DNA of 64,000 nt from Phoronis australis (lineage: Eukaryota; Animalia; Phoronida), in assembly GCA_002633005.1 (NCBI GenBank), contig NMRA01000121.1, positions 199,000 through 262,999 on the forward strand, read 5' to 3'. Position numbers and translations under genes: made by a program. Shown piece by piece: positions 9,601-64,000 of this stretch. Each line of letters starts with the position of its first letter. Positions within the stretch are counted from its first letter, which is position 1. Under the pieces are notes generated by a model, which was not told the DNA's origin, made no database searches, and saw nothing but the letters and a program-made list of their open reading frames with translations.

Positions 9601-12600
9601 CATTCTCCAGAGCCTCTCTTTGGTACTCTATAGTTGTCATTGTACCATCAATCTGATTCAGCTGCTTCTCAAAGCGTTTTTTCCTCTTCAGAGCTTGCAA
9701 GGCAACTGTAACACGAATGAATGCTTGAACATTACAACAGTATTATATGGGCCGACACAAAGGGAGACAGGTCATATGGATTGAGGGCAACATTGCTCTC
9801 TCAAGGTCCAAACATAGGCCTGAGGGATCGGTCTATATTTGTTTTATTGCATGCCCATTCATGATCTCTCTGACTTTTCAGTAACTTGCTTTGATGTATT
9901 GGCATCGTCTGCTCACTAAGTTGTCAGGGATTTATGGTCTCAGCTATTTCATTGGTCAGATTGCAAATAGCACCATGTGATATTCTATACCCTAGCTCGT
10001 TGACATCAGCTCATAACGTAACTTATCATACCGCATGCGTTTTAGAATACATCTAGTAATTTACAGTGTGCTCACTTCACTTGGTATTTGGCCAATTCCT
10101 CTTTAGTCGACTGGTTAAAGGGCCGAGCAAGGCGGACATGACACAGTGAACGCCGGATCAACTCTCAGCTCATACAGCATCTTTGGATCAGCTCGAGATA
10201 TTCAAGTCTGATAAACCATAGCACAAAGAGCCAGGGATGAGCAAAATTAGACAGGTTCCCATTTGTTCTGGCTTCTCTCAGCAGTGCTGCCATACAGCTG
10301 TCATCCTACACAACCTCTTATGTTTCTGGTTGGTGCTGAGGTGTATCGTAACTAATGATGCATCACAACCAATTTCACCAGTCAATGTATAGAAAAGAGG
10401 GATACTTGGAGCATTTCTCAGAGTTGGAAAACGGTAGAACATCAACAGCCAGCAAACCGTAACTCACACAAAACTTCTCTAGAGACATGTACATTAGTGT
10501 TGTGAAAAGTATTTAGAGTTATGTCGTGTGTGTTGATAAATACATCTGAACCCTTCATCAGTGTGCAAGGACTCTTTGGTCAACCAGTTCAGACAAAAGT
10601 TCAACACTCAGGGAACCAGGGTTCTACTCCAGCCGAGACCCAGCAAAGGTATGACCAAAGACCAGTGACGATGAATATACACCCTCAGGAGGCACATAGA
10701 GCGGGGACCAGACAGAGGGATGTTCCAGGAACTGATGTGAGGAGGTGCTCCTGACCAGCAGGAGAGGGAGTAATATTGAGAAAAGTACTTTGGTAGTCCG
10801 GTGTTTAAGTTGCTGCAAGGTGGGTGACCTCCCTCCAGACTGTTTCAAGTCAGAGCTGTTATATTGGCAACAGTTTGTGGCATACTTGCTCAACAGTGAG
10901 TGAATCTGTCGAGTGAAATCATAAAAAACAACAACTTGCACCCACATCAACTCATAGAAGCCCTGCTTTGTAAAGCAATGATTAAAATTGAAACAATCGT
11001 GTCATATTAATGTAAAATGGCTCAATGCTGCTCATTCTGTACCACATGGTGGGTATGAGTAGTCTAACAATGTAACCAGCCCTATAGGTCAGTGTTGGTG
11101 GTCCTCACTGGTAACTTGCAAACCGGTAGTTATCGTCGGGAAATGGCAATAACATTTGAGTGAAAATATATGGAAACCCAAAAGCCAAACAAATTTAGTC
11201 TTACTAGTACCTGTCAATAAACAATATCATTTTTCTTTGATCCTTTACACTTGCAATTTTGTTCAATTTGAATCCTGTTTGTAGTTAGTGGAGTTTACTT
11301 GGCCAAATGCTAAAAAAATCCGTTGCTGGCTAAGCTTTCTTACGCCAATGTCATCACTTACATCGGTCAGTGAACATACATAATTTGCAATTTTATGACA
11401 AAACACCAAAAGGAAGATAATCAATAGGGAGAGGACCAGTTTGTATAACAAATGTCAAAATTATCCGATATCAATGAAATTAAATCAACGACGTGCGCAA
11501 AAGTTCTGCCACCTGTCCGCCATCGGCAACCACAACCAACGTATTGCCTTCCAGTAGCGTACAAGTTCACAATTGGACTTGGATAGGAAATGACTAGAAT
11601 TAAGGAGAGCAACAAATAGACCTACACAAGTCTCACAATCTAATATGGCCATCCATAATTTGGAGAACCAGTCTGTAGGGAACCATTGAATAATGGGCCT
11701 GTTATAGATAGACACATTGATCGAAGTCATTTTTAAATTTTGAAAATTAGTATAACCTTGTCAAAACTAGTTATTCAGTGGATGAAACTGGTTCACAGAT
11801 AGACAGTGACTACAGTCTCTAGGTGGCTCAGTAGAAACGGTGTAGCTCCTATAGGTGCTTCATACGCAGTAAGCTTTTCGGCAAATGATGCTTCACAAAG
11901 ACTAAAAAATCAAAGTCAAGTTGTTATAAATACCTTTTGCATATAGAGGGAAAACTTAGGAGGCTGTCAATGTCTTTAATTCCTTCCAACTCGAACAAAC
12001 TTTTTCTTTGAGCAGTCCCTCGTGCATATCCCAAAATCGGTAATTGGACATTTTTACATTGCATACGCCGGTGGATATGACATCAATCCACCTGCCGCGC
12101 GCAGTGTTAAAACTTGCCAGTTTTCCATTTTGGGAACTGAACGAAGGACTGGTCGAACAAAAAGTTTGATAACGAAGTATTTGTTCAAGTTGGAAGGGAT
12201 TAAAGACATCGACGGCCTCCTAAGGCATCCCTCTATGCTGGAAAGGTTCTTAAAATAACGCGACAATGTCATTGTTTACATTCAAATCAAATACAACAAC
12301 CAAATGCTTAATAATTAATGCACATACAAGCATAATGATTTGGACAAATGGAAACCAATTGGAAGGTCCCCTTGAAACGTTGACATATTTTTCTTGTAAC
12401 CAATCAGCGGACCCTGGAGTAATGTTGCTGTTTTTAGTTGATGTAAGCGTTCTGAAGGTGTTGCGAGGGTCCTTATGAGCATGCGCATTAGTTGATGCCA
12501 AATGGCACTTTTTGCAATCTACGCTTTGCCATGAATGTTGCCCATTGAACTAGGAAAATCTGGAGGTATTTATGGTATTTATTGGTTTCGATGTCAACAA

Positions 12601-13864
12601 ATGTAACCAGTGAACGTGTTGCTGCCGCAAGAAAAATGTTTGAGTTAAATTAGTGTTGTAGATGTACTTCCAGTGAATCATATGAGCCTCTGTTAGCTAC
12701 TCGCCTAATAACTGAATGGTTAGCACGCTAGCCAGTTTTATCGGGGTCGCTGGTTCGATCCCTGGGTCAGGTAATCTCGACTATTACTACAAATGGCGTA
12801 GTCGGCAAACAGATGATCTACCGATGAAGCACTGCCAACTAGTACCGTGGACCTCGGACGGCGGTCTTGGATGCATGGTGATTGTAAAAGTTCCAGAAGT
12901 GGACGACCTGTATGACAGACAACCTCGTGTTCACCTGTGTTGTGGTGGTAAAGGTATCAAGGGACAATGATGACTTGTATGCAAGACATCCAGGTGTTCA
13001 CCTTCCTGGTGGTGTGCCTGCTCTGAAGGAAAAGGGGGAATGTTTAGATGTGTTTCCGGTAAATCATATGAGCCTCTGTTAGCCACTCGCTGACAGGCAA
13101 TTGCCTACTAGCTGAATGGTTAGCACGCTTGCCAGTTTTATGGGGGTCGCTGGTTCGATCCCCGGGTCAGGTAATCTTGGCTATTACTACATTACTCTCC
13201 GATTTGACATGCTTGGAGTTATTCCGGAAGTGCCCGACAGTTGGCCATGTTGGACAGCAGTTGTATACCTTTCTCTTTATTTATTTTATAGTTGAGGGCT
13301 GATACAATGTGCCTGTGGGGTCGCTGTCTAGTTCAAAGGCCACGTCAGCAACTGCTACTTTGAACAAGTGCCAGGATAAAAAGTGATTCACCCTAGAATG
13401 ACTCAGATAGGGGACTAGGCAACGTGCCGACGCTACTGAAGAATCACCTAAATAACAGCTAAAGCCACTAAACAGTCTTAACAGGTGTTCCGCATTTTGA
13501 GAACCAGTACTAGGTTATTCAGTGGAGAAACTAAGGCGGAGTTCCCTAGACGCGATAATCAGCTAGAGGGATCACAAACTTTGCAAGTAATACATAGCGA
13601 TATCTCGCAAAGTGTTGCGTGATCTTACACTTTCACGAGTTTCTTTCGTCTACGACACACATGCCAGAAAAATACCACACCTCTCTTATTTTTTGTTCCG
13701 AACTTTTTGGCAGTTGCCAGCTCAGATTCGACTTTCTTTTCTAGGAAGTCTGACTTTTTCTGTAACATTTCTTCAATATCCCTCAGTCTCTGTATGGCTT
13801 CCTGAGGCGATGGAGCCTTCTCCATTTTCTTCCCACCGCCAAATAATTTATTTAAGAGCGACAT
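6613..13864 (-). CDS. CHMP4B: Charged multivesicular body protein 4 (Snf7/Shrub/CHMP4B-like ESCRT-III subunit), complete, 5 exons, 217 aa
   Basis: Exons 13681-13864, 9528-9705, 8831-8945, 7463-7589 and 6613-6662 total 654 nt. All introns are GT-AG with consistent phases. Translation MSLLNKLFGGGKK...QEAIQRLRDIEEMLQKKSDFLEKK...ALQALKRKKRFEKQLNQIDGT...DELNAELEELEQEELD...LKELQAWAM is a classic Snf7, with the C-terminal ALIX-binding (L/M)xxLxxW motif. Confidence 0.96.
7060..7366. repeat. Two diverged tandem copies (~180-bp period) of a purine-rich repeat; related copy at ~16080-16190
   Basis: GAAACTGGAAATCAAA...AAAAAGAGGA.ATCCTC...GGAAAATTAYGAGCCCTG.TT.TTT.ACCTG.T.GTGATTGGTCA occurs twice. Confidence 0.6.
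7463..7589 (-). CDS. CHMP4B: CHMP4 exon 4
   Basis: TTTCAG| DELNAELEELEQEELDEQLLKVPGQAELPSVPSEPVVQESRR |GTGAGA; includes the MIM2-like LPSVP. Confidence 0.94.
8831..8945 (-). CDS. CHMP4B: CHMP4 exon 3
   Basis: TGCAG| NVDDVHDLMDDIEEQNQLASEISEAISNPVGFGQDIDE |GTATGC. Confidence 0.95.
9528..9705 (-). CDS. CHMP4B: CHMP4 exon 2
   Basis: TACAG| ...ALQALKRKKRFEKQLNQIDGTMTTIEYQREALENASTNTEVLKVMNTAAKSLKAAHNN |GTAAGT. Confidence 0.95.
11944..12235. mobile_element. Fold-back MITE with long (~120-bp) imperfect inverted arms, copy 1
   Basis: TAGAGGG..CTTAGGAGGCTGTCAATGTCTTTAATTCCTTCCAACTCGAACAAA... mirrors ...TTTGTTCAAGTTGGAAGGGATTAAAGACATCGACGGCCTCCTAAGGCATCCCTCTA. A homologous copy lies at 41177-41513. 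Confidence 0.8.
12654..13191 (+). mobile_element. TRIM (miniature non-autonomous LTR retrotransposon) with tRNA-derived sequence in both LTRs (Helenus-like)
   Basis: LTR1 12654-12791 and LTR2 13041-13191 both run TGT...ACA. PBS TGGCGTAGTCGGCA at 12794-12807; PPT GAAGGAAAAGGGGGAA at 13025-13040; flanks TTAG/TTAC. Each LTR has an A-box (TARCTGAATGG) and a B-box (GGTTCGATCC). Confidence 0.85.
13681..13864 (-). CDS. CHMP4B: CHMP4 exon 1 (start codon)
   Basis: ATG at 13864; MSLLNKLFGGG...FGTKNKR; donor G|GTGTGG, phase 1. Confidence 0.93.
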
Positions 13865-14469: not shown

Positions 14470-15110
14470 GAATTACCCCATTCACAAGAAAAATGACCCC
14501 TCACCCGTCAGTATATTACCAATAATTTCAAAACTTTATGAATGTCCAACCACTTTGCCAAAGAATCTAATAATCTTTTTAATGACTACCTTGGTGCCTT
14601 CCGTCACTGTTGGCTTTATTTGCAGCGCAGTGACGGCTTACTTCGCCTACTTGAAGACTGGCGTAAAGCCCAAGATGAACAAAAATACACTGCAGCAGTA
14701 CTCATGGATCTTTCTAAAGCTTTCAACTGCCTCCCTCACTCCCTTCTGATCTCCAAACTTAAAGCTTACAAATTTGATGACATGACCGTAGCCCAGGCTT
14801 TCTTGGGAATTATACCCACTCTCAGTTACTGGAAAGACGCGATAGTGAATCACTCAACTGGTTCGCTGTAAATGGCATGCAAGCAAATCCTGACAAATTC
14901 CAAGCAATCTGCATAGGGAAAAATTGAACACGTTCTGTAAAACCCTCTCCACTGGAAATTGCGAAATACCTTGTGAGCCGAAAGTTAAACTTCTAGAAAT
15001 AGCCATTGATATACTAACCCTAGTAACTTTTGACTCACATATTTCGAACATTTGCAAAAGAGCCTCAACAAATAAACGTTCTAAGAAGAATTGGACACCA
15101 TCTTAGAATA
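14470..15110 (+). mobile_element. Degenerate non-LTR retrotransposon reverse-transcriptase fragment (CR1/L2-like)
   Basis: Frameshifted pieces PVSILPIISKLYE, LLEDWRKAQD...AAVLMDLSKAFNCLPHSLLISKLKAY and VKLLEI.ID..TFDSHISNICKRAS match LINE RT subdomains and the downstream thumb region. Confidence 0.85.
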
Positions 15111-19509: not shown

Positions 19510-19781
19510 CTAGAGAGGAAGCTTCCCTGCAATCTGTACACAGTTCATGTTACACAAAGCATCAGCTAAAGCCGCAGCAGTTGCCTTGCTAGCAAATTTC
19601 TTGCGCCATTTATCCAGCATGTCGTGTATCTTCTCATACAGTCCACCATGCTCGTTATCATGGGAGAAAGCATCCAGCTGGCCAGAAGAGAATCCTAACT
19701 GTCGGCCTAGTTCTCGCCACTTTTTACCAATATTGAGGCAGACAATATTAATGTCATCGTCTGTGATGACACGGTTAGAAT
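19510..19781 (-). CDS. RIPK1: RIPK1-like exon 11 (death domain, stop)
   Basis: TTTCAG| ...ITDDDINIVCLNIGKKWRELGRQLGFSSGQLDAFSHDNEHGGLYEKIHDMLDKWRKKFASKATAAALADAL...PL*. Confidence 0.92.
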
Positions 19782-22700
19782 CTGAAACAAATGACAAACT
19801 ATAACAAAACATTTGACACAGAGTATTACCATGCATTCACCATGTGCATCACAAATGACAGACGTACGGGTGATCATTTTTTCAAACTTTTTAAAGCACT
19901 TTAGAGCAGAGCAACTGTAGTAAATTTAAAATTAAATCTATAAGGTTCAGTGGTAGTAATCAAACAAAAAGAAAATGCAATCTTCATATTGATTGAAACA
20001 TTGGATCCATAAAATAACCAGACTGCCCATCTTGATCACCTTAATAGAAATTAATTTGACATGATCATTCTTCAAAGGGTTTGGCATCCAGTGAAGAAAA
20101 TTCCAAAAACGCATATTGAAGTGAAAAATGACCCAGAGAGGCAAAACACGCATTGGAACAGTCAAGAAATGGGCTAGCACAGTTCGCTCCAGGATAAATT
20201 CTTATGTATCAAATTACGTGAATATCCTCAATCAAATCTGAATGTAAAGAATAAAATTGCCACAAGGGGGTAACAAGGTAAGCCAAGTCTCCATCAACAG
20301 AAACACCATTGTCAAATTTCATAGCAATTATTCAAACTGTATAGGGAACTCGACTCCAGTCACGGAAATACATGAGGATAGTTGAGGATTTTCATTGAAA
20401 CACGTAGTTTGACCACAGAAAAGGAGAAAACAGCAAAACATGTTAAGACATTGCTTAATGGGAAAATTGTCATCTGTGTGAAGTAAATACATTGTTCTGA
20501 AGGACTCTAATACACCCACTGAATAACATGAATTCCACTGAAGAATTTGATAAGATTTTAAAGCAGACCAACCGAGAACAAAATTACCACTACGGGGGCA
20601 CATCAGAAATCAGAATCATTCAAAAAACAACCATCACCCATACAGAGGCTGAATTAAAAAATTTAAATTGTCACAAGGGGGATAGCAGTATTCGGATCAG
20701 TGCAAAAATCAATGTCAGCTATACTCTCATCACTCCAATTGTCGCATTTAATGGGGATCCTTGATTGGGCTAAACAGGCAGGCACAAGAAATCTAAAATT
20801 TCACTTGGAGGCAAAACAATGTTTGGATGTGTGCCAAAATCACCATCAGCCATGCTCTCTTCAGTAGAAACGTATCTTTTTAAATTTATTAATGATTCTT
20901 ACACAAACTTGGAAACTACATTATTAGTGCGACAAGTACACAAAGATAGCAACTGACGTCCAATTAGCCCGAAAATCGTAGGCCATGCTCAATTCATTAG
21001 GAGCTTGTGTCCCTGCAAATGGATGTATCTGACAACCGTTGTGCCCCGTCACATTCATAGGAATACACTTGTCAAATTTCACAAACATCCAACTAATGGT
21101 TACAAGATACACTTGCCGATGGAAAAAATGCTGCAAGAGGCAAATACAGTAGTCCGAGTCGCCCAAAATTGCCAGTCTTGTCAGTTGAAACACGCAAAGT
21201 TATCTGCCAATTTTCACAATGCTGCTTTTGAGTGTTAGTCAGATACTACAGCGGGACCACAAAAAATTTCCGAAAATTAATAAAAATCGAATTGATGCAA
21301 AGCTTATCGTCATCTGTCATCTGGTTCTACATCTGCCAAATCTCATTAAAATCCTGCAAGGGTGTGAAAAGTGCTGCAGTAGATGATTAAAGACGAGCAC
21401 CCTGACAGCCGTGATGGCAATAGACATCCACATTATATAATGTGAATGCACGAAGTTCATCTCACTTAAACTGTACATTGTCTTTATTCAGACAATGTAT
21501 TATTTGACTGTTGCCAATTTTCACAATCATCCTTAGAGCGATTTGGTTGATAGGGGGTGGACGCCAAAAAACAGGCTCTAAAATAGCAAAAATGGCCACT
21601 AGGTTGCGCAAACTACACCAAATCCATCCAAAAACAGGAGGACAGCATCATCTCACTAATAGATGCTCATATGCCAAATTTTATGAAAATACCTTGAGGA
21701 CCTTTGAAGATACAGAGGTAAGCGTAAAAAACTAAAATTGCCACTAGGGGCCACACCGGTAGTCGGATCCGTCTGAAATTTCCCTCATGCCGTCCTATCC
21801 ATGAAATAAACACGTGCAAAATTTCGTGAACACATGTTAAAGGGTTTTGGAGATAGACCAGCAGACGCAAGACAGACGGACGGAAATGACAGCATAATGC
21901 GTCCACATATAAATATGTGGGCGCATAACAATCGAGTTTTAGAAGCCCTTGCTAGGGGTTTAGCATACTATCAGACATATAGGGCTTCCCGATGCAGTTA
22001 ATCAGGTTTTTAACACAACTGATATTAATACACAAACACACAAACACAAACACACAAAGAGGGAACTTACCAGTTACATCCACTTCAACTTGAGTTTTTT
22101 GTTTTCTTTTGCCACTTTCGGAGACGGGAAATGGAAAACCAGAAGAGAATGGCGCTGCATTGAATGACGCTGCACCCGACGACCCACCATTTCTTGGCAA
22201 GATGATATGCATTGTATTCCCGTCACCAATTTGTATGTTTCCAGCGCCACTATAATTATGGATGGTCGTCCTACCTCCACTTCCTTTAAAGACAAAATAC
22301 ATGGTATAACTAGTTATGATACTATTCATAACAGTAACAGTACAGATAATTACAACTGTCAGTGAATCTCCAAAGGTATTACACTAATAGTTCATTTGCA
22401 GCAATGTGCTATTTTAGAAGCAATGGTTCAATTACTCCCGTTTTCCAATGCACTGAAAGTTTCACCTCCAAAGTTGAGTAAGGCGATATAGCATACAGTC
22501 TGAAGTCAAGTTGGCTTTCACACTACATCGCCAGTTTTGCATGATTATTATCTCAACTTTTCATCTACAGTCAAACGTGAAAATGCAGTGCAACAAAAAT
22601 TATTCCTGACCACTTCAGGGTTACAACTTTTAAGCTTGTGACGTTGTTGCCCTACCCTATGCTGAATTTGAACCCCGATACTGTAAAAGGTGTTAGTTTT

Positions 22701-25700
22701 TCCCTCACTTATTTACAGAGAAGAAGCTAAACCAGCATGAGTACACTTACCATGTTGGTGCACAATAGTCTGCGGTTGTGTAGGGTTCTGAAACCATCAC
22801 AGTATCACGTCATTATAATAAGAATAATTAAACGACTTGGACAGATTATGATTTAGTACTGTTACAGACCCACCAGTACAAAGCATACTGCTCTTGATAA
22901 TTCGCAAAATTGGTCTCTCATACCTCCATATTGACTGCTACTGGGGTAATGAGGTTTCAACTCATTTGAAATTTTTTGAGAATTAGTGGAAATATCACTG
23001 CAATTTGATCCTGAGATCATGAAGTGGAACTTGCACGCTAAGTCCTTATTGCTGTGATCGCTTGGTCAAATCAGTAAGAAACACAACATATAGCGACAAT
23101 GTGAATATGGAGTANTGTTGAATATTGCGAAATGTTCTTAAGAACGAGTTTTGTGTCAAAATGATCCACCGTATATCACTCAACTGTGTTCAGTAAGTAT
23201 CGTGACATGATGTTGAGGAATAACACTGCATGATGCGGGCTATGTGAGCCCCCAAGGTATGTCATTAGTCTGAAGATCACCTATTTGCATATTCTTTTGT
23301 TTTCACATTACAAGTTGTCAATGAAAACAACTGCACTTAATTTAGTGTAGATGATGTTCAAATAGCATTATCCTTTAGTTCCTGCTATGCATTAGTGCAG
23401 TTAGGAGCATGCAAATACATCAGTCTTTAGTGTTCGCAAGCCAAATACATCAGTCTTTAGTGTTCACAAGCCACTATGTTGCCTGATGCTTCACCAGAAT
23501 CGAGTCTTTTTAAGCTTTTTTGTGTCTTCGAAATTCTTATATCACATTTGTTTTACGTTACTATAAAATATAATTCACTTGGGGAATCTGAGCCCAAACC
23601 TGCATCAAGGCAACACAGTTCACTCCACCGCGCTATTACACAAATGGTGAGTGCCTGAACACTCAGCATGCAAACAAATACAGTGTGTGCCTGAACACTC
23701 AGCATGCAAACAAATACAGTGTGTGCCTGAACACTCAGCATGCAAACAAATACAGTGTGTGCCTGAACACTCAGCATGCCGACACATACAGTGCTCAGAT
23801 TGGCAACCTGCAGGTTAACAACGCCACCTCAGATTGTGGCGACCTAGGATTTTCCCCAAAATGCCAAACAAGGCTTGTGATTGTATACATGTAGAACTAA
23901 ATGATGGCTGTCCATTGTTTTGAAATTAAAAAATCAGCTGTTGTGTGACTATAAACATGACATTTTTTCCAATATATAATGTGTCTACTCCAAGCATCAG
24001 GAATTTTTTTCAAAACCTGTCCATGATTTGGGTAAAATGTGCTATCCGACTGATCGAACAAGAAATGGGCATGCCATTGAAAGTCCAAACATAGCCTCAT
24101 TGCATGAAATGCTTAGAGAATGCAATATAGACTTTCACACTCAGCCAGTATGTTGGTTTTAGATCCCAAAACCGCGATAATGACCTCAACTCTGCCTCGG
24201 TCATTGTGACATTTTAGGTCTGAAAACCAATAATGGCCACGACGGAAGTCAATAATTGCATAGTATTAGTGAGGAAAACAAATTTTATTCAAAAATGTTG
24301 AGGAAAAGAGGCAAGAGGGAAACTGAAGACACACTGATCAAAATTGATGCTTTGCTCCAAAGTTGGCAATTTTCGTAGTCAGACAATGGCGAAATCCATT
24401 TTCATGGTTGTGTGCAAGTGCATGCTTACCTTTGCAGCACCAGCTCCTGCGAAAATAAAGGAGAGAAATTAAGGAAACGGTTATAAAAGGACTGTGTCAT
24501 AACCTGAATGATATGCCTCCAAGTGATATTCATTTCTCAAACATTACACATATCAAACAATAATTCATGTTGTTCAATGCATGTAAAAGTACAAACCAAC
24601 CACAAACTACAAGGTGCTTGGGATATATGACTAGCTACAAAGCACTGCACATCACATTGTAGAACTGGATTCTGAGAAGTCCGCAGGTTCAAATTGAGCA
24701 TTTAATCGGGATAAAACAACTACATTTACTTTTCGTTGCTTCAATACTATTGGAAGCCTGAATTGGTGTTTAACATAATTTTTTGCCTTTCAAAATTGTT
24801 AAAAGTGCACTTTAGTCACAATTTGAACATCGTCTAATGCCAAGCTTAGGCTATTTTTGCAGAACATGCTAATATTACATCACCCTGAAGAGATGTAGAA
24901 ATTTAAGCTATGCACTTATAAGCAAAACAAAGCATTTCCTAGTAGGAACATTTAAAAATGCAACGTGCTCAAATATAAGGCCAAGAACTTACACTGTATA
25001 TGAAGCTACACCGCGTCTCTTTCGATCAACGTCAGTTATTTTTGTGATTTTTGCCAATGGGGCACCAACACAAATAAAAGTACTGAGAAATTTGATAAAA
25101 CCTTGGTAGGCTACAGCAATTCCATGAAAATAATGGAAAGTCTGATACTCATCTGTCGATCGTGAGTGAATGCTTAGGATGTTTTTAAACAGTTCAAAAA
25201 CTGGGAAATTCAAACATCAGTTGGAGGGCATGGAAGTTGCGTACATTTCCGGAGTGAAATTCTCATTAGACATTCGCTCCCGAACACACAGGCTATTTTA
25301 AAAAAGTATCGATTAAACAAATTGTGGCTGATGGACAGTAAACCAAGCACAGGACATTTTAAAGAGTTAGCCGTCGTGACAGGAAAAGTTATTTGTCTGA
25401 ATACTTTTGTTTAGTAACTGTACATGTGCGTAATATGTACACCGCGTACAACAAACAACGAGGGATGACCATTACTTTAAACATTGCCACAAGAGGGAGC
25501 CATACCAGCAAACTAGCTTCTAGTGTTCACAAAGTCACCAACAAACTGGCAAGAGAATCCTCTCATTAATAAGACTATATCTGCTGAATTCAACAGAATC
25601 AAGCAGCATGTTAGATTCCAAAGGTGGATAACAAAAAATTGTAATTACCACTACACAGCACAGCACTAGTGTCATTAGCCCAAAAATTAGGGGTTGCTGT

Positions 25701-28700
25701 CTAATCCGTAAAATAAACCTCCGAGCCTTTGCTGTGACCACAAAGATCACTAATATGGTTTATAAGAGGATTGGATACCAAATAAATTGCCATTAGGGGT
25801 TCCAAAACATTGACGAGTGCTGTCCCATCCGCAATGTATGCAATTGCTAAGTTTCATTAATTTTCGTGGCTTATAAGATAGAGAGCTGACTGCAAAAAAA
25901 TAAATCATACAAAAAGTACAATATTCACCTGATCCGTCAGAATTAAAACAAGCCCAATACATTTCTTGATATAAGCATATTTGTCAAATTTCATGAAGAT
26001 CAATCCCAAGACTCAGTAGATATTGAGGTATAGGAAGCCATAGAAGTCACATCGATCCAAAAATGAACGCCAGCCGTGCTCTCCCAGCAGGAACTTCAAA
26101 ATCCACAAGAAATTTGGTACATCTTGAGGCACACAACTGTCTATAGTCACTAATTTTCTTTTTCCTCACCTCACAAAAAGATGCACACAGGCTCGAAAAC
26201 TACACAGCGATCTGCATATCATACATCTGCAGGAAAAAGGTGTTACTAAACCCTATATCAACTTCACTTCACCTCTTCAATCTCGACAAAGGATATTTAA
26301 TCAGGCAGTTAAGTGGATTGAGAGATGGACATCAAAGACTAGCTTAAAAATAATAAAACGGCCACTAGGGGGTGCAAAATAATCAAATCATCCTCAAAAG
26401 GAAAGTTGTCAAATTTCCTGAAACTCAGACTGAGGCAAATGTAAAAAACTAAAATTGCCAAGTCCAAAAATTGGTGATTGATAGGATCAGAACTTCAAAA
26501 TTGCACTAACACATAACAAGAGGTTTGGAGATACAGCAGCACACAACAGACGGATGGACACCGGATGGGTGAGGAGAGAATGACCGCAAACCCATACTTT
26601 CTTAAGGATCGCAAGTCAAATCCAAACACACACTTGGACATATATTTTGAAACGAATATTCCTTCAGACGAGACAATACTATAGCCAGCTCACAAATTAA
26701 AACCAAGAGAGTCAATAAAAACGCATCAAGGCATGATTGTTTCACAGGTAGAAATTCATAGTTGAAAATTTACAGTAGTTACAGTTTTGGCGATTCCAAT
26801 CAAATAAGAGAAAATTCTAGGATTCAACCATGTATAATTTTCCCAAATAAATGGCCTGAGTGTATATGCAGAAAATGTTCCTTAAAGACCCCTACTGGCT
26901 TTTATTGACCTTTCCGCACAAAATGCCAATTGTGTACATGTGGGTGCACAAAATGCAACATTACCGAATAGTAAGGACACACTAGGCTATTTTGTGGGAG
27001 TTTACCGAATACCTGCAGTGTGCTCCCTCTTGGGTCCCTGTCTATCATTTGGTACTGCGTCAACTTCAACAGGGGAGTGGGACCTTCGACCACCTGGGTT
27101 TCCCTTCTCAGCGGTGTTCCTTTGAGTAGGCAGCCTCTGCGATGGTTCCCCATTTCCTCTCCCAGATGGTTTAACCCGGTGCACTTCGGTTGTGTTTCTC
27201 TGCACAGGGCGTTTCTCCCCTTGCTCACCTCCAATTGGGAGTGGCCTTTGGTGACAACCATCAGTGGTGTTCCTCTGAACTGGCAAATTTTTCTCTCGTG
27301 TGACCCTTTCATTTCTACTACCACTCAAATTGATAGAACCCTCAATCTCAACCCTGCAGTACAAACAATATTTAAAGTGAGTTTTAACCCGACTTCCACC
27401 AAAACTGATCTAGACCACGCATTGCATGAAATTGGTCTCCGATTGTTCCTTAGTCAAAGTGGAGGTGGTTTGAGGACTTGGAAAGAACTGACAATGTTTT
27501 AGTGCATGAGACGAGGCTCTAAAGGGTGACTTCTCATGACGTGTCATTTTATGTGTGGACAATGGTCTCAAAGAATAAACAATTGCTAGATCTTTGCAAA
27601 CCCAGAAACCCGTCTTATCTGACTAACAAACAAGTGGAGACCAGCAGTAAGTTAGAAAAAGTTAGAAACCCACGGCTCTTTGATTATTTGAATACATACC
27701 TCTCTAGATAGTGGAAAGAATATATGAACCAATAACATTTTGTATTTCCTGATCATTCATCGAGTGTTACTTTTAAAAATTGAAGCTGCAAATTATAATC
27801 AAAATTCATTTGTAGCAAACTCCACATTCGGATGCCACTCCACAATAACATGTTGTCCATAATCAACTAATAAAATCCCCTTGCAACTGATTGAAAACTG
27901 AAGTTCATCTTACACAATGGCCAATGGCTTGACAAAATTTTAAACTCCTGGTTTTCACATGTAATGACCAAGATGTCAAAGTTGGTGAATGTACTAACGA
28001 TGCCGAACAAGTATATAACAAGTAGATATATACATACCTGTCAGCTGGGTGAGGCACGCCGGCAGCATCTTCCTCAATATCACCGGACGGCTGGGCATGG
28101 GTCTGCTCACTCTTTGTAGGGGATGCTTCCTGATAACAGCAAAAAAATACAAAATCAAAATGCAGTTTCCATAGGTAGACAGGAATTTATTCATTTTCAG
28201 TAGGCCCCTCATATAGAAATTGAAAATTACATGTACTCGCACGCATGTGTTTTTGTGCTGTTTTAACTCAATTCATATGTTGGACAATTCCATTGGATTC
28301 CATTTATTTTGATGGAGACCAATTTTACATTGGAAAGTAACTCTAAACGTTAAATACTTCTTGGGCATTTCAGGGTTCAGGATGGGCATTCACAAACACA
28401 TTGTCAAGCGCTTTCACAGAAGTTGTGATCTTATAAGTTTTAACCACATAAATTCATTGGTTTGATCAGTGAAGAGATTTTGATGCCATGCAAATCCTTA
28501 AATGTTAATCGTCGTTTTTTGCGGGGTTGCGGAGTCAAGTCAACTATAGCAAAATCATGGCAATACTTAAAAGACAAGGTCACTCTCTAACCACCAATAT
28601 AAAACTACAAAAATTAATAATATCTGTCCATGTTTTGTATAGAAGGTAAATTAGTTTGAAACTGCATGAAACACAGGAACTATTGTGAAATTTCTATTAA

Positions 28701-31700
28701 AAAATTTTGACATCAGACTGCTTCTAGCCAATCACGTGTCTCTTACCTGTAATTAAACTACTGAGTACTGTAAAATCTCTCGAATTTCAGATGAAAATAA
28801 TTGCCAAAATAGGGCTTTCTTCCGATCAAGAGCTTCAAGCACTGCTGTTAATGATCACAATTTTTCAAAATATAGTTTGTTTGTAGCTATGGTACAGAGC
28901 TTGAATATGACAGTGTCATTTTGGCACTATGTATCATTTGTAAAAAATGAGAAAAATATTCAAAAATTTCACTTGTCCACCAAATTGTGTCCTAAATTGG
29001 TAAGTAAAAATGTTCTGTCGAAGAAACAGCTCCTTAGTGAAGCGTAATGGATTTTGAGATTGCGTTCAAGCTAAAGCAGCAGTGCATTTCCTCAGTATAT
29101 ACTTAGTTGACAAGACATAAAAGTGAATAAAGCCACTTAAGTTGATAAAATTGGCTACAAAATATAACTTTCTATGATAGGACTTTATTTCCATCACCAA
29201 CAGGAATATCAAAACTATCAACAACTCAACAACACGGTTCAGAGTTTATTGGTACTGGCCAACCTGAAGGTTGTGAATTCAAAACACATGTTGTATGCAA
29301 TGCTTCTGAGTGTCTGCCTCAATTGGAAACAATTCAAGGTCAGATGACCGAGGTAATATTATTAAACCCAGTTGAGAATTCAACATTAACAGCTACACAC
29401 CAATGAAATGTCCATTTAACTTCCATCAGTGGTAAATCAATTGTGTGGATCTTTAGCATATATTGCACATAGGAGTTGTTTTAACAATTTAGTATTAAAC
29501 TTGCATTAATAATAGGAGACTTTCTGAAAAAAATAGAAGCTGATCACATGGGAGCAGTGACTCATATTGCCACCTAGCTGTACAACGAAGTACTTTGTCT
29601 TCATAGTAAGTGGCATAAGGAATCACTTTGACTTTGTGTTAAGACTCTTTTACAATGTATGTGATTAGACGTGATGTGTAGCTATGAAGTGACTGAACTA
29701 CCTCTTCGTCTTCTAGAGGCCACTGGTATCCGGTCCCATATGACCAGTCGTAGAGTCGTTATTTGAAAGTCTCCCATTAAGTAAGTGTACCAGCTCCATA
29801 TCAGCTAAGCAAACTTTAGGCTTGGGCAGAAAGGGAAATGCTCAAGAGAGCTAGTTTTAGCTCTTTCCCATGAAGACAAGCAAAGAGTTAAGGATGGGTA
29901 AAACACAAAGGGCTTTAAAATGTTGAAAGGTAAGATTATGCTTTAAGTATAGTATTGTAATTGCACAAAATGATACTGAAATGATAAAATTGCACGGCAT
30001 GTTTCACCGGCAAAACATCTACCACATTCATGCCAAGGCTTGCTTAAATTGGGAATGCAAAAATCAGGGTATGGTCATTAACCAAGCAGAGGAGGTAAAA
30101 TGACAATTTTTGTGAAGTAGGGGGCATTTACCCAAAATGGTCGATTCAGGTATCCCACTCTCATTTCCTATGAAATCGGGAAAGTTTTAGAATGCATCCA
30201 ATATGCATATTTTCCCTAAATATATGCCCTGGAGACATCTGAAGAGAATTTTTGTACATATATGCTTATTGGGCCTGCCTACAGTAAACTGCGGAAGAAG
30301 ACCAGCAGAAAGGTCTCCCTGAAACTCGAAGGTAAGCCAGTTTTGTGTTTTAGGAGTTAAAATCCATGCAACAAAAAAAGAAGATGGGCATTCACAAATA
30401 CACATTGTCAGTCGCTTTCAAAGAACTTGTGATCATACAAGTTCTAATCAAAAAACAAACATAACAAATGACATCCAACAAGAGAAAGAACATGGTGCCC
30501 AAAGTTGAGCTCAGAAAAAGTCTCAATCGAAAGTTCGAGATGCTGACACACTGGATTTGCCAAGGCGAATTACTGTGAGTAATGTCAGTTGTAACAAGGA
30601 ACCGATGATGTCATTGTGGAAGAGAAAATATGAGGAGAAGAAAGTAGTACTTTTTACACAAGTGTCTTAAATGTTGAGTAGCTGAAAGGATGACAAGCTA
30701 CAGAACAGATCCATTTTGTTTGGCAATCATTGACTTTTGTACCTGTAGTTTGGGTCTCAGCTCTTCTATGGCTTTGGTGATCTTGTCGTCAAAGCCATCA
30801 CTTTTGTTTTGATTTATTTGTTCCACCAACTCTGCAAAATGAAAACAATCAATATTTAACAAAAAAATATCACAAGCCATTCCTGTTATGATTTTCAAAA
30901 TAGAATGCAAAGAGTCAAACAATAAAGAACTGACATATGCCACCAACTGCATATAACACCGAATAAGTTATGCACAATGGTTCCACTGAATGTTATCATG
31001 AACACTCTCATAATTATATACAGTTGTGACAAACTAAAGGAGTCCAACAATTGATGCACCAGAGTGGTATACAACAAAGCAGTCCAGACAGACTCTGCTA
31101 CATTACAGTCAATTAGCTTTACACTTCAAGCTCAAATCAACTCGGGGAAATTAAAGGAAACAGGGCCTATACAGTCAATTACATCTTTACACATCAAGCT
31201 GAAATCAGCTCCAGAGAGTTAAGGGAAAGAGGGACATTACAGTCAATAGCTGATTTTTGAAATAGCAGCGCCGTAGTGAAATTCTTTAGGCCTCTAGACT
31301 TCGATCAGGTCTTTAGTGGATAAGTATTCAGCATCACCTACAAACTCCATGTAATGCGGATGGAAGGTTTAGACCTAGTGGTATTAACATCTTTTTAACA
31401 TCAGTCTTACAATAATAATACCAGCAAATGCCTCACGAAAAAATGCAAACCTTTCGAAATATCAATTGATGAGCAATGATGCTCTGTTCCATACATTTCC
31501 CACTTCGAAGATGTATTCGCGACAAAGCCTGTGGCTGCCGCTGATAAAGTGGGAGAATTTCCATCCCATCCAGTATCAAAACGCTAAGTGAACTCATAAC
31601 CAATCAAACAATGGGCAGAGCTGACACTGGAATTTAATCCTCTGCTTATATATTTAGGAATCGTTAATGTAGTAATTGAATTTTTGTCCACCTAATCCGA

Positions 31701-34700
31701 TTCGTGAACAATCGGAAGTCACACTTATTCTCTCGTTACTCTATGAAAAGTCCCCTATTAGCTTACACGTCATCTTGAAATCAACTCCAGAGAATTAAGG
31801 GGAACAGGGACACTGCAATCAGTTATAGCTTAGTTTACACATCAAGCTGTAATGAACGTCATAGAGTTAGACAAGAGTTTTGCATGAAGATGCATCGCAG
31901 GTGCAACGTCTGATTTTACAACTGTGACAAAGCTCTGTAATTACAAAACACCATTTGCACTTTTCTAATAATAAAATTGATATAAAAAAGTCGTAAATTG
32001 TCACAATTATTGTGGTAACATGATTGTTTTAAGAACTTGAAAGTTTTAGTAATACTTTCTTAGTGAAGAATAATAAACAGCGAATTCAAATTGAGTAATC
32101 AATACAATTACGCAAATAAATTTTTTAGTATATCTTTTAGCCATGAACTAAATATCAAAGAGGAATGCTACAATTTTGAAGATAATGATCAAATTACTTT
32201 TAAACGTGCGCCTTTCCTCGAGTTCTTGACTCCAACTACTTTTCATCATGTCTTTCAGCCACTCCGGAGTATTTACAGGGATCAGTTTTTCATCTGGCCG
32301 TTCACCCCTTGTCACTGCGAGAGCGATACGCTCTAATTCTCTTACATCTGTCAACAGACACACACTGATTAATTTCACAAAGCACCCATAACTTCCCAAG
32401 TTTTTTAAGCATTTGATGTCATGAAAATTTTACGATTAGGTAAATTGACAACCTGTCCATTGTACATATTGCGTATACTCCAGGACTGAAAATCTTAATT
32501 CATGCCTTGGAACACCAACCATCATTTATAATTAAGTAATCATTGTTTTTGAGAAAATTGTCATTTAAAAAAAACGGAGGCTTAAAAATATATTCGTACA
32601 TTCAATACGCACGGTACTGTGTTGTAGATTTTCATATAGCCTCAAACAACAGAGATAGCTACTTTTCAATAAATTGTCAGACATCTTCATTTTTGACGGC
32701 CACCTCAGTAGTTCACAGGAAAATCGAAAATCTGTATACAGTTCCCTCTCCCATATACCACAAAATCAAGCACAAAATTTAATGTCTCCACCAACCTACT
32801 GTAGATAAATTAATGTTTGATGGTATCTGTTGAAAATCAAAAAACTTCAAAGTGGCCACATAATTCGAATTAATGTTGCATAATTGTCGTAAAAACAATA
32901 CCTTCAAAGAAAAATAGTGAGTAGCCATGAAAATATACCTTTTTGACTTCATAAAGCAGGTAAACATCTCATTGTTGGAAAAAAAAATCACGGAGATTGA
33001 CCAATACCTTAAATCAAATACATTGGAACTGCTAACATAAAAGAGTACACGAAGGTACTTAGAATGCTGTCAGTAACAGTCTGATGAGTTTAGTTCAAGA
33101 AATTAATCAATAACACAACCTATTTAACAAACAAAGCAGAAAATGGTTCAAAAATATGCAAAACATGGACTCACGCGAAAATGGTACTTCACACGTCAGG
33201 ATTTCCCAGACCACTATACCAAAGGCATAGACATCCTGCGCCCGGTCAGGAGCAAGGTTGATAGTCGCCCACTGCTCTGGAGCGACATGAGTAGTTGTTC
33301 CTTTCACCCTCTCTACACTCGAGACTTTACTGAAACTTCTGGAAATTTCTGGCCAGACAGACAATCCGAAGTCAGCAATCTAAAATAACAAGACAGTACA
33401 CAATTACTGACTTTCACCAAGGTCAATAGGTTGTTTCTCAGCACCCAAAAATGTGACAATGACCTCACCCAACAGCCTCAGTAATTATAAACTTTTTGGG
33501 GAATATGTTACAACAACTATCTAATGCAAGGCTCTCCTCAAAAGTAATTCACCTACCAGCTTCTATCATGATTCTTCAAGCAGTTTGGTAGGTGGACAGC
33601 AATTGAAAAAATAAGTGCGAAAACAATAAAAAGATGACTAAGGGATACAGCCTAGGTCAAATTCAAACAGGGCTGGGGCTGTAGTCCACACGGTTTTTCT
33701 TTAATTGAATGGAAATATACAGGAAGTAACATGGGTGCCACAGCACAAACAAAGATGACTGGATGGCCTTTTTTCTATTCTAAACAAACAAAAATATACA
33801 ATTCCACAGGGCATGAGTTTCCTTGCTTTTGGTTAGCTCATTTCTCAAGCTGGGAATTTCACCAGGAACGTATATAACGAGTTTACGTTATGTTTAGCGT
33901 TGAGCCACATGGAAGTACGACATATAAATTTTTAGAAAATCCATATACGAAGGAACTTGGTAGATATTGAGGAATGGACAAAAAACAGAAGTGCCAATAA
34001 AGTGCACCGCAGTAGTCAGAGCCATCCGAAAATAATTGTCAGTCACTTATTTTCAATAAGTACTGACATATGCCAATTTTAATAATCCTTAGATTGATTT
34101 AGCCAATAGAGGGGAAGCCAAAAACCAGTTTTGCCTCAACCTTCATCCTACCCCCCACCCTCTAGTCACCAACCATTTTCTGTCAACTCCTTCAGTAAAC
34201 ACTTGTTATACTCCATGAACTCCGACAGACAGGTTGCTGGTAGCAGTAATTGCAGAGGCGCTCCCACCCCCAATCAATCACTTCCTGTGCCAACATATGG
34301 TTTACAAAGAAGACAAAATACGAACAAAAAAATTATCTGATAGAGATCACACTAACAATTATTGGAGTGACAATGAGAATTGCCTCCAGGTCACCAATCT
34401 CAATGCGCCAGCATATTCCCCGTGTACACCTTGCAGCAAAAGCTGGACAAAATGTGAGATGACACACTAACATTTCGCAAAATCTACCTTGCTGTGATGT
34501 GAAAATGCAGTCAAGATCACCAAAGTTGACTGGCATCTTGAGATGTAGGTACCCAACAAATGCAAAATGAGAACAAAATGCAATTACTTCTTTCTTAACA
34601 AAATACTATGTCCTTTACTTCACACCACTGCACAGAGTGGAACACAGAGCCTCCATGGAATTTTTTCGTTTTGCATGTCTAACACAACGGCATGTCCAAA

Positions 34701-37280: not shown

Positions 37281-38327
37281 GACTCGTTTTCTTGATTCTT
37301 GTTACTCAGGTGGAATCTAAGTAAACACAATTACTTGATTCAGTCATAGTCAGTATATAGTTTTCAAAATGTTTTATCATCCACAGTCATCTCTTGAAAT
37401 GTTGGATTGAGGGAACGCCTACAACCCAGTGTTGCAGTCCAAATAGTTATAGATTAAAAGTTCTTACACACATGATCGCAAAGACACAACCTTGAAAATT
37501 ATTGTAACATATGCCATACCTGTCGCAGCAGCGTCAAGCACTGGTCAGACAACACAGGGGTAATAGTCGACTACACTGGTTCCTGATTTGAGAACTAGTT
37601 ACTCCCACTGAATAACACCCATTACCGTTACGTACCATCCTGGACTTTTAAACCAAGAAATTTCCAACATCACAATCCAATCAAGAATCAAGTCAGATTA
37701 AACTCGACAAACAAGCCTATTGTGTTGGTACACAATGCTGAGGTAGTCAGAGCTTACAGTCACACAAATGTATAATCAGCAGTTGAAAGTTAAGAATTTT
37801 TCTGAAAGTCAACCCTTTTCCTCTGTTTTAAGTTTTTTAGTGACAGTCATTCATAGAAAAAACATCTTCTTCACAACATTTGTTAAACGTCATTTGGAAA
37901 TAGCATTTTTAAATATCAGTTAGCGTCAGGTGCACTATTTACAACATAATTGCCAGAGCCCTCAATCCCTCGATACTGGGGCCGCATATCAGACCCATTC
38001 CCCCTGAAAAGTATTGAAAAATAATGTGAAATTCCCCTCACGATGTTCAAAAAATGCCCTCAACCGTTTGAAAAAATACCCTTGAGGCTCGAATCACTTG
38101 TAACTCACACAGGTGGTAATTTGAAGGACCACAATGACTACTTGAGGCAGAGCCTGCAAGGGCTTGCAACAGGATGGGGGTGCTATTGGTGGTTATCAGG
38201 AGGTAGAATTTCCCCTCACCCCAAAATATTCCCTCCTTACAAGGTACAGGCAGCTTTCTCCTTGGATGAACGCGGGCCCTGATAGCTGAATTACGTGAGC
38301 TGGACTATATAAACATTGAACATATTA

Positions 38328-39139: not shown

Positions 39140-41176
39140 CTATTTTCATTAGCTAAATGGAACGCAGTTATATACTTAGTCTCATACAAACATTGCTTCA
39201 CCAACTCTGTCCCCTTGTTATGGCTGTCAAGCTGATGACGACACGGCTGCAACCAGAGTTCCCAATCAGTGGTGGCAACTGGTTCTCAAACCAATTTCAA
39301 ATCAGAGACCCACCTTTCCGACTATTAAATACAGTAACTAAGTTCCTAATTTAGAGAACCAAACAAAACACTGAATAACGTAACATAAGGTAATTGCTCA
39401 CATGACGACGATACCAACATCATGTGCATAGGTCACTCTCCTTGAAATGTAAACAGTTATGTAATGGGCAACGCATTATTAACAATTGACTGCTGAAATG
39501 ATGGATTTTAATGCATAGCAACAGAGCATATTAGATTAACCGTGACAAGAGAAAGTCGTGTTAAAGGAGAATGCCACCAAAAAACAGTGTATCTTGAATC
39601 AATTTGGATCAAGTAGATCCACTCGATAACAGCAAGTTCAATTCTTTTACTTGACACCAGACGGCAGACGGAGGTGCTGAAATTAACCAGAGGCGTCATA
39701 GGTTCTAAAAGTCTGTTCAGCAGTTCACAACGCACTTAATGGTGTCAGTTAATCACTTGACTTCAAGGCTTTACACCAATAAATCATCAAAACTCGATGC
39801 AAAACCCTTACATAGAGTTTTTAAACAAACAAGATGCTTTATTTCACTGTTACGGACTTATAGAAATTTTGAATGTACCATAGCCCACAAAGTTCGCTAG
39901 GCCAACATACCGAGGTCGGTCGCAGGAAGTTTGTAACTGTTTGGTGTTAAATTATCTAGAATTATTCTTCCGTGAAATACAGAGAGGAGAGCACAGACAA
40001 GTGTTATGATTTTAGACTTACAAATTTTTGAGTTCTAAACACACAAAACACTCTGTATAACCCAGTGGCTCGGAAAATGATCAGGCCCCTTGCAGATTGG
40101 AGAAATTACGAACATGAAAACAGTCGGGTTAGTTGGCTCCCAAAGTTGAAAACTAAACTTCAAGTCACAAAAAGACTAGACTAGTAATTTAAACCAAAGA
40201 AATAACATGCACATGAATCAGTATCTTGATGAATTGGCTGCAAAATCGCAAATCTACTGACTCGTTGGTACCCCGAAGTCACTAGATTCCCCTTCCACAG
40301 AACTGTCAGGGCAAAGGTTGTACAAAAACAATGATAATAATGTATTTATATATCTAATTACAGTTTCCACTAACATCTGACACATAAAATCGAGTTATTG
40401 TTTCACAGCAACTGTTTGTCAGCAAACACTGAATTAGCATGTGCTCACATACACAGTCCACTGCCTCAGGTGCCCAGTCATGTTACAGTTTTATTGCATA
40501 CGAAGCTGGTAACACAGTTTTATTTGTTCAATGTTGTTTTCTCAACTCAGGATCACTTCAAAGGCATTACAAATTGTATCTACTGAGACAGACTTTGACA
40601 CTTTGATTCAGTTTTATACAAACATTGATTGGGGTGAGAATAATTCATTTTGAAACAGGACAATGTCCGACACGGGAATATTTCATGGCCTCATATAATT
40701 TGGTATTAACCGTGAACTTTTCATTCCTTACTGCTGCGAGCCACTTCCGAAGCATTTCAGGCTATTGAGGAAATCGAAAAAATAATATACCTGCTTTCCT
40801 CACAGCTTCATGGTTTGTACAAGCGTTAACGATACGCCACATCATAGCGGCACACACTCAGATGAAGAAGAATGAAGAACCACAATCACCGACGTTGCTG
40901 CATCTTCCTCACAGGTTATCGTGACACATGTCAGTGAGGTGATCTCGACCGTATAAGAGGTGAGGTGAATGGATACTGACCCATTAAGACGGTAAAAAAA
41001 AACAAATTAAATTGGGCGGCATTCTCCTTTAGTTTTAAACATATGACCATCGTCTATGCTGGCTGACAATAGAGTTCCAATAAGTGCTTTATAGACCGGA
41101 TGCTTTTTGGCGAATTATGCCTCCCACTGACTAAAACATCAAAGTACCGTTGTCTGAAATACATACATTTTGCGCA

Positions 41177-41513
41177 TAGAGGAACACCTTAGGAGGATGT
41201 CAATGTAAGTTTAATTCTCTCCAACTCGAACAAATACTCCTGTTATCAAACGTTTTCTCCAAGCAGTCCCTTGTTCAGTTCCCAAAATTGGTAACTCGCC
41301 ATTTTCACACTGTGTACGCTAGGGCCAGTAGGGGATAAACACTGTGTCATGCAACCTGGCGGGTCCAGTGTTACGGTGAGTTACCGATTTTGGTATGAGA
41401 ACGAGAGACTGCTTGAAGAAAACGTTTGGTAACGGGAGTATTTGTTCAAGTTGGAAGGAATTAAACACATAGACAACCTCCTAAGCCTAAGATTAACCTA
41501 AGGTGTCCCTCTA
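41177..41513. mobile_element. Fold-back MITE, copy 2 (same family as 11944-12235)
   Basis: TAGAGG..CACCTTAGGAGGATGTCAATGT...CCAACTCGAACAAATACTCC.GTTA.CAAACGTTTTCT.CAAGCAGTC is mirrored at the right end, ...CCTAAGGTGTCCCTCTA. Confidence 0.8.
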
Positions 41514-63462: not shown

Positions 63463-63552
63463 GTAAAGTCTTCATACTCATCAGTCTGCTTTAAACCAGC
63501 CGTTCGGACAATGGGGGAGTGGTTAATTAAGGCCCTTCCATAGCTAAGCCTN

Positions 63553-64000
63553 TTCTTAAGCAATGCTGCTGTTGTATTTGCTCAGTGGTGAGACTGTCGT
63601 GTTATTCACAAGTATGTGTTTAGACTAGAATTCTAGAGTGACAGCTCAGTTTGTACTGACGTGTTTGACCTGTTTGAAGTTGTAATATTATATTATCTAC
63701 AAGACTGTGCTGTTATTCACAGGGGGGAGGGGGGAGGGGCATGGCAAGCTCCCGTGTGAGTTATTTTTTTGCGTACTGACAGTATGACCATACAGCTTAA
63801 TACAAGTTGCTTGCAATTCAGGTTTTTAAGTAATTCATGTTCAAATAAAAAATTACAATTTTCAAAAAAATGGTGGTCTCTTGATATGAACGACTGTGGG
63901 ATGTTTTATGGAATGAATTCAGATTTTTCAGTCATTGAGGATTCAGAAAATATTTTCATGGGTTATTTAATGGTTGTTTGATGAAACATGAACAGGATTC
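63553..64000 (+). repeat. Near-identical direct duplicate of 62615-63057 immediately after an N (probable uncollapsed haplotype or scaffold overlap)
   Basis: The sequence restarts at TTCTTAAGCAATGCTGCTG right after n63552 and differs only by a few SNPs and homopolymer indels. Confidence 0.85.

Follow-up and report, generated by a model that had tools for sequence, protein, structure and literature searches.

Helenus (TRIMp3) elements, as described by Kojima in 2024 (PMC10886601), are miniature LTR retrotransposons (TRIMs) which combine tRNA-like LTRs with Gypsy-like primer sites and which, in animals, have 4-bp target site duplications (TSDs) and occur in six phyla. In that work, the conservation of promoter boxes within decayed tRNA sequence is read as selection for a promoter, multiple origins of Helenus are argued for, and Pol III activity is given as unvalidated; all that is said here of the published families refers to the accessible part of the article and its supplement. 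The plant TRIM Cassandra carries 5S rRNA in its LTR (PMC10886601 and PMC7215508, in the parts available). Among animals, the biv-TRIM elements of bivalves (available part of PMC6934838) have short direct repeats and occur also as solo repeats and in arrays.

The element studied here belongs with these systems. It lies on the plus strand of a 64-kb stretch of Phoronis australis DNA (the window) and is a gene-less TRIM with a total length of 538 bp, that is, an element below 1000 bp with TG...CA LTRs, a PBS (primer binding site) and a polypurine tract (PPT), in the order LTR-PBS-interior-PPT-LTR. Its parts and immediate surroundings are as follows.

9704..13681 (ends approximate), minus strand: intron 1 of CHMP4/Snf7, between exon 1 (13864-13682) and exon 2 (9703-9527)
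12420..13281 (about 12420-12653 and 13196-13281; left end approximate): older multi-copy host repeat, with raised depth and joints across the element
12650..12653, plus strand: left TSD copy, TTAG
12654..12791, plus strand: 5' LTR (LTR1), 138 bp; loose contig ends at 12654
12702..12773, plus strand: degenerate tRNA-like body of LTR1, with A box 12709-12719, T4 12736-12739 and B box 12752-12761
12792..13040, plus strand: non-coding interior, 249 bp
12794..12807, plus strand: primer binding site of tRNA-Ser type, 14 nt, 2 nt beyond LTR1
About 12880-12946 and 12947-13013, plus strand: imperfect 67-bp interior duplication
13025..13040, plus strand: polypurine tract, 16 nt, abutting LTR2
13041..13191, plus strand: 3' LTR (LTR2), 151 bp, the family-typical long form
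13072..13098, plus strand: predicted hairpin, with core stem 13077-13083 / 13089-13095 and a 5-nt loop
13095..13106: perfect palindrome of 12 bp, with its centre at 13100/13101
13102..13174, plus strand: degenerate tRNA-like body of LTR2, with A box 13109-13119, T4 13136-13139 and B box 13152-13161
13192..13195, plus strand: right TSD copy, TTAC

Both LTRs start with TGT and end with TTACTACA. Identity extends to 125 of 137 aligned positions, with one gap of 14 nt and another of 1 nt, and the 12 differing sites comprise 9 transitions and 3 transversions (K2P distance 0.094). An earlier reading, made from the sequence alone, had proposed these LTR coordinates and termini together with the PBS, the 16-nt PPT and the TTAG/TTAC flanks, and on re-checking every one of these positions was correct. 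The sequence-only reading also held that the interior is devoid of retroviral coding sequence and contains a duplication of about 67 bp. In fact, no Pfam match was obtained in the three frames tested, and no coding capacity for mobility proteins was seen in the six-frame translation; the duplication is real, since 30 of 40 positions match at a lag of 67, the best of 200 shuffles reaching 24. With 11 purine runs of at least 14 nt on the plus strand of the window, the length of the PPT alone is unremarkable. No second copy of the element was found within the 64-kb window, and at E<=10 Rfam gave no match to 5S rRNA-derived sequence in the LTR, nor to a hammerhead or any other ribozyme. Matches to mir-8927, psbN and a pestivirus IRES (E 1-7) were discarded as chance.

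The insertion had been described as antisense to CHMP4, and a tblastn search with CHMP4 relatives places it within intron 1 of CHMP4/Snf7, on the opposite strand. Exon 1 of this gene is closest to molluscan and annelid proteins, with an identity of 78-83%, and in a tree of 35 rows (the window protein and 34 of the 120 matches) the window protein forms a long branch outside all supported groups, being nested in no named mollusc, arthropod or fish clade. Elsewhere in the window, a methyltransferase exon matches lancelets only (61-63%, among 43 candidates), and a kinase exon gave no match at E<=1e-15. A RIPK-like gene on the minus strand (about 19510-37300) has a Pfam kinase exon at 34979-35353, a Pfam death domain exon at 19513-19833 and, near 22200, an IQIG motif which resembles a RHIM. 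A palindromic MITE-like repeat, whose arms are complementary at about 75% of positions across some 300 bp, is present at 41073-41485 and 11844-12238, one of its copies being in the same CHMP4 intron as the element. A short repeat end of very high depth with piled loose ends was observed at 13494-13530, some 150 bp away from exon 1 of CHMP4, and upstream of CHMP4 a reverse transcriptase fragment (14542-14868, plus strand; weak RVT_1 match, E 7e-5) is probably a decayed LINE.

The tRNA-like part of the LTRs is best recognised by its boxes. The B box GGTTCGATCC is found at 12752-12761 and 13152-13161, and these are the only strict B boxes (GGTTCGANNCC) on both strands of the 64-kb window; A-box-like 11-mers are located at 12709-12719 and 13109-13119, so that both sets of box positions given by the sequence-only reading stand. 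The spacing from T8 to T54 is 45 nt in each LTR. Among 200,000 simulated LTR-like sequences, 1 contained an A+B pair spaced as in a tRNA, and the window has no further site of this kind. LTR2 carries TRGCY, YGG and GGTTC, the three Helenus box motifs, and the A box of LTR1 shows one change relative to LTR2 (G10>A). A tRNA covariance model built from 37 bacterial and phage tRNAs was run unfiltered over the 64 kb and gave 10 matches, the first being LTR2 (13102-13174, full length, 17.2 bits, E 0.0087) and the second LTR1 (12710-12773, 11.1 bits, E 0.58), whose tRNA-like start at 12702 was set from T8 minus 7. These scores, from a model of bacterial and phage origin, are weak when compared with the 29-bit cut-off of Rfam. 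With the sequence-only version of the model, 62468-62506 ranks first and the two LTRs next. That first match (E 0.0004) lies in a second degenerate tRNA-like stretch (62445-62507) within 62401-62515 on the plus strand, a TGT...TCA span without matching flanks and single-copy in the window, which may be a SINE or a decayed solo LTR of another family.

As to a functional tRNA, ARAGORN reported 0 genes, Rfam gave no tRNA match at E<=10, and the anticodon arm is not formed in the tRNA-model alignment. Thus, the tRNA body claimed by the sequence-only reading is present as a degenerate one, occupying the first two ranks of the covariance model, but it is not recognised by ARAGORN or Rfam. The retention of the boxes while the stems have decayed fits a promoter rather than a tRNA.

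The reading which we favour, and in which we place considerable confidence, is that of a non-coding TRIM with tRNA-type boxes in both LTRs and a 4-bp TSD, likely transcribed by Pol III and likely mobilised by a Gypsy element. In active members of the family, TFIIIC would bind the boxes of the 5' LTR and Pol III would start about 7 nt before the A box, with predicted starts near the positions equivalent to 12702 and 13102. The only runs of four or more T on the plus strand of the element (12736-12739 and 13136-13139) are both between the boxes, a feature which the sequence-only reading overlooked. Human Pol III terminates very efficiently at T4 in vitro, leakiness in vivo being reported (available part of PMC3141230). 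A T4 located 37 nt after the start could therefore abort most transcripts, and the leakiness in vivo makes a read-through step plausible: some polymerases would pass the T4 of the 5' LTR and stop at that of the 3' LTR, yielding an RNA of about 437-440 nt with a terminal redundancy of 37 nt. This RNA would be packaged by a Gypsy particle, tRNA-Ser would prime the minus strand and the purine tract the plus strand, and integrase would insert the DNA at a stagger of 4 bp. As for the hairpin and palindrome of the U3/R border, the RNA would contain them in full only at its 3' end.

A genuine TRIM could also carry its tRNA-like part as a passive relic of a SINE or tRNA, the RNA coming from a Pol II promoter in the LTR or from read-through, an explanation that we judge unlikely but worth weighing. 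The T4 within the tRNA-like body, the low tRNA scores with the collapsed anticodon arm, and the published statement that no Helenus has experimental proof of a Pol III promoter (PMC10886601, in its accessible part) all speak for it; moreover, small repeats can sit in host transcripts, as this element does in CHMP4. Against it stand the exact tRNA box spacing despite decayed stems, the pattern read in PMC10886601 as selection for a promoter, and the axis of a palindrome located at the start predicted from the A box. We consider that the family probably does use Pol III. The likelihood that the copy in the window is itself active is much lower, since its 5' LTR is altered in the A box and is missing 14 nt where transcription would start; with LTRs 9% apart, it is an older insertion with a damaged 5' LTR and is probably inert.

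The existence of a family was established with contigs from four runs of the same organism (X1-X4; at most three samples of one study, which may include the source of the window), aligned to 12250-13650 (1401 bp) at 80% likeness. Between 407 and 1446 contigs aligned per run (407, 423, 1421 and 1446), most of them less than 95% alike, these counts including neighbouring repeats; the summed depth is no measure of copy number, the ratios of repeat to flank varying more than 10-fold between runs. Loose ends pile up precisely at 12654 (X3 and X4, with 26 contigs in each; agreement 0.38-0.39) and precisely at 13191 (13, 11, 17 and 24 contigs in X1-X4, agreement 0.37-0.47), as expected from the multi-copy family with fixed TG...CA termini anticipated by the sequence-only reading. 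The low agreement of the flanks at these ends indicates many unrelated flanks and argues against a common tail. The element therefore belongs to a dispersed multi-copy TRIM family.

The same contigs contain empty sites. A joint 12653>13196 (X3 and X4) and a joint 12648>13191 (X2 and X3) each skip 542 bp, that is, 538 + 4, the empty site being spelled once with TTAG and once with TTAC, so that the check for a 4-bp duplication was positive. Each joint is represented by one contig per run and flagged 'between: not known'. The flanks, read correctly as TTAG and TTAC, are part of a multi-copy repeat that the sequence-only reading missed; its right edge is marked by loose ends of 16 contigs (X3) at 13281, and no terminal inverted repeats were found within the stretch tested. 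Since the flanks are themselves multi-copy, the 542-bp joints may represent further copies of the host repeat and not alleles of the present locus, the duplication being 4 bp either way. At this one locus, with one contig per run, the TSD is 4 bp, its two copies differing at one of the four bases.

Sister copies were also detected. In all four runs, a variant copy joins 12814 to 12994 through 195 other letters and retains the LTR, the primer site and the purine end; in X1 and X2, copies with the joint 12846>12913 are without 66 bp of the interior; and at 13045, 16 contigs of X4 continue into other, purine-rich sequence. Copies with a changed middle and the same LTR, primer and purine end represent sister subfamilies. 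Joints running back from LTR2 to the primer site are compatible with tandem arrays or with the 5' LTRs of other copies. In X1 and X2, a copy with a different middle apparently combines a 5' LTR of the short type (12673-12814, 141 letters) with a 3' LTR of the long type, as does the copy in the window. The LTRs of one element are expected to be identical at insertion, and this pair is possibly an alignment artefact or the result of recombination between subfamilies. Furthermore, contigs of 3028 nt (X1) and 2880 nt (X2) end in LTR-primer-interior sequence (12712-12946), which is preceded by 2.6-2.8 kb.

These data bear directly on the reading of the locus as two ordinary tRNA-derived SINEs 400 bp apart, or as a tandem SINE dimer, with the PBS and PPT arising by chance. 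Each repeat does have a tRNA-like part, and purine runs as long as 14 nt are frequent enough in the window to accommodate a fortuitous PPT. Nevertheless, the left end of the family is at TGT, about 50-60 nt upstream of where the tRNA-like part starts, and its right end is at ACA, without the simple-repeat or poly(A) tail of tRNA SINEs and with low-agreement flanks; the empty sites lack the whole 538 bp as one unit plus 4 bp; the interior is multi-copy; and a 14-nt complement of tRNA-Ser follows 2 nt after LTR1. The variable tails or single-copy state which had been named beforehand as counter-evidence did not appear, the family being multi-copy, without a common tail and with a 4-bp duplication. 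Thus, the contig evidence largely refutes the SINE pair, which is now very improbable. A local duplication or assembly artefact as the source of the two repeats is the least probable reading of all and is likewise largely refuted by the contigs: an assembly duplication is likely elsewhere in the window (62615-63056 / 63553-64000) and no single contig among those listed covers the whole 1401-bp stretch, but 12 differences separate the LTRs, transitions accounting for 9, and independent contigs show the LTR-interior-LTR order in other copies. The duplication at 62615-63056 / 63553-64000, direct and 97% identical, is inside a phosphoethanolamine methyltransferase gene, its second part beginning directly after an N at 63552, and is likely a haplotype or assembly duplication.

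With the multi-copy TRIM as the preferred reading, its source of mobility can be considered. The sequence-only reading had claimed complementarity to tRNA-Ser, and in fact the 14-nt PBS equals the start of the DNA templates for human tRNA-Ser, that is, the complement of the 3' end with CCA included (human template sequence from the available part of PMC3299991). It had also pointed to Gypsy elements with the same PBS. Scanning metagenome contigs for TACA followed by the tRNA-Ser primer site gave at least 118 loci, most of those listed looking like chance matches in GC-rich microbial DNA; three of the loci listed have a long RT frame downstream of the LTR-end/primer pattern, two of them in the order protease-RT-RNase H-integrase and one with integrase before RT and Gypsy-type integrase domains. 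The last of these (L022, 102-3317, minus strand) carries a pol frame with the same primer site which is presumably Gmr1-like. In two of the twelve loci examined further, an LTR pair ends at the primer site, and each pair is flanked by a 4-bp duplication (CTTG and TATA, with the LTR start set at TG). Among the metagenome matches listed, relatives of the element were absent, the only matches being of 19-29 nt over the LTR-primer junction.

The Gypsy loci with a tRNA-Ser primer (L003, L032, L022, L001 and L057) share with the element the LTR-end/primer junction, and the two complete LTR pairs both have 4-bp duplications. Unlike the element, they code or once coded for gag/pol; in addition, the 400 bp upstream of their primer site contain no B box, and they have no LTR sequence in common with it. 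Therefore, Gypsy elements with the same PBS do exist, in other organisms, but a shared LTR sequence was not found. By analogy with these loci, all from other organisms, a Gypsy element is likely to supply mobility in trans.

When compared with the families of PMC10886601, as far as its text and supplement were accessible, the likeness to animal Helenus claimed by the sequence-only reading extends to every structural trait: a short non-coding LTR-PBS-interior-PPT-LTR order, the TRGCY, YGG and GGTTC boxes, the lack of a functional cloverleaf, a 4-bp TSD, a primer from a tRNA 3' end, and a size that falls in the range of bivalve families (such as Helenus-2_LimFor, 141/251/533 bp). The family is thus a true Helenus-type TRIM family. 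It differs in having no T-run downstream of the B box; its T4 is between the boxes, as is also the case in Helenus-6_SaGl. A further difference is the primer site, since the human tRNA-Ser type is absent from the published Helenus primer list in its accessible part. In the supplement, where line breaks can hide matches, a motif search gave no internal start with the tRNA-Ser primer motifs, and the only LTR-specific motifs matched were the B box and, in fungal interiors, a 9-mer; by eye, no published Helenus in that part of the source is similar in sequence. Judged against this supplement, the family is likely undescribed.

Cassandra, in the published accounts available in part, resembles the element in having a Pol III-type internal promoter within the LTR, and also in that a start in the 5' LTR and a stop in the small-RNA part of the 3' LTR lead to a short redundancy, of 18 bp in Cassandra and of a predicted 37 nt here. 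It differs in its 5S-type A/C box, plant host and Met-type primer, as against the tRNA-type A/B box, animal host and Ser primer of the element; moreover, the transcription of Cassandra has been shown, whereas that of the element by Pol III is predicted from its boxes. The biv-TRIM elements are likewise animal TRIMs but differ in that, in the accessible part of PMC6934838, they have no canonical primer site and no tRNA promoter is described in their repeats.

The LTRs of the element show a further feature at the U3/R border. The 14-nt block present in LTR2 and absent from LTR1 had been interpreted as an insertion in LTR2. In all four runs, position 13092 inside the block reads A for G in 43, 51, 88 and 96 contigs (94-97% of depth). 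With at least 43-96 contigs covering it in each run, the block is common in the family, and its loss from LTR1 is more likely than a gain in LTR2. The block forms the 3' arm of the hairpin and the left half of the palindrome at 13095-13106, and so lies within a hairpin-palindrome module. The hairpin (13072-13098) has a predicted energy of -12.4 kcal/mol (z -2.2, 8 of 200 shuffles being as stable), support that is lost in a longer 70-nt context (z -0.8); the common family variant at 13092 converts a G.T pair of its stem into A-T. The palindrome is the only perfect one of at least 10 bp in the element, 10-bp palindromes occurring at 74 of 63,991 window positions, and its axis is 8 nt before the A box of LTR2, adjoining the predicted Pol III start at 13102.

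The same arrangement was looked for in the published Helenus LTRs of the accessible supplement. These palindromes were counted by eye, uncomputed and without a control set, in 76 LTRs of non-arthropod animals (wasp and most fungal entries being left out), related families not being independent. A perfect or near-perfect palindrome of about 10-12 bp, ending 1-4 nt before the A box, was seen in 54 of the 76, usually preceded by a hairpin. By the same eye count, it was present in coelacanth (2/2), sturgeon and paddlefish (2/2), ostariophysan fish (14/14), bivalves (33/51) and nemerteans (3/3), and in none of the Lingula (0/3) or ctenophore (0/1) entries. This gives the element a likeness, again by eye, to coelacanth, sturgeon, ostariophysan, many bivalve and nemertean families, in all of which hairpin and palindrome precede the A box. 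The letters vary while the symmetry is kept, as in GGGTTAACCC (Helenus-1_CGi), GGGAATATTCCC (LTR2_Lch), GGAGATCTCC (Helenus-1_BaPl), GAAGTACTTC (Helenus-1_MyGa) and GAGCCGGCTC (Helenus-1_AcRu). In the accessible text of PMC10886601, figures aside, there is no mention of a palindrome, hairpin, inverted repeat or dimer. Among the papers listed on palindromes with TRIMs, LTRs, tRNA-derived elements and Pol III, none deals with this point judging from title or abstract opening.

Retroviral palindromes act in RNA dimerisation, and with this as a model, a role of the hairpin and palindrome in dimerisation, packaging or strand transfer is a speculative proposal. More broadly, and only tentatively, most Helenus of fish, coelacanth, bivalves and ribbon worms, together with that of the present host, may form one ancient lineage instead of many captures of SINEs. 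Its mark would be a hairpin with a 10-12-bp palindrome on the Pol III start, whose symmetry is kept while its letters change; the palindrome would be a working part, in dimerisation or packaging into the Gypsy particle or in strand transfer; and the present element would carry the lineage into another group of invertebrates, with tRNA-Ser as a new primer.

For annotation, the element is a warning that such LTRs are prone to be taken for SINEs or pseudo-tRNAs. With the present family, the Helenus class, described in 2024 and covered by one primary paper, gains a type of primer and possibly a group of hosts. Moreover, the shared hairpin-palindrome, if upheld by alignment, would challenge the published argument that origins were repeated and independent, and it would offer a concrete cis-element for studying the entry of a Pol III transcript into a Gypsy particle.
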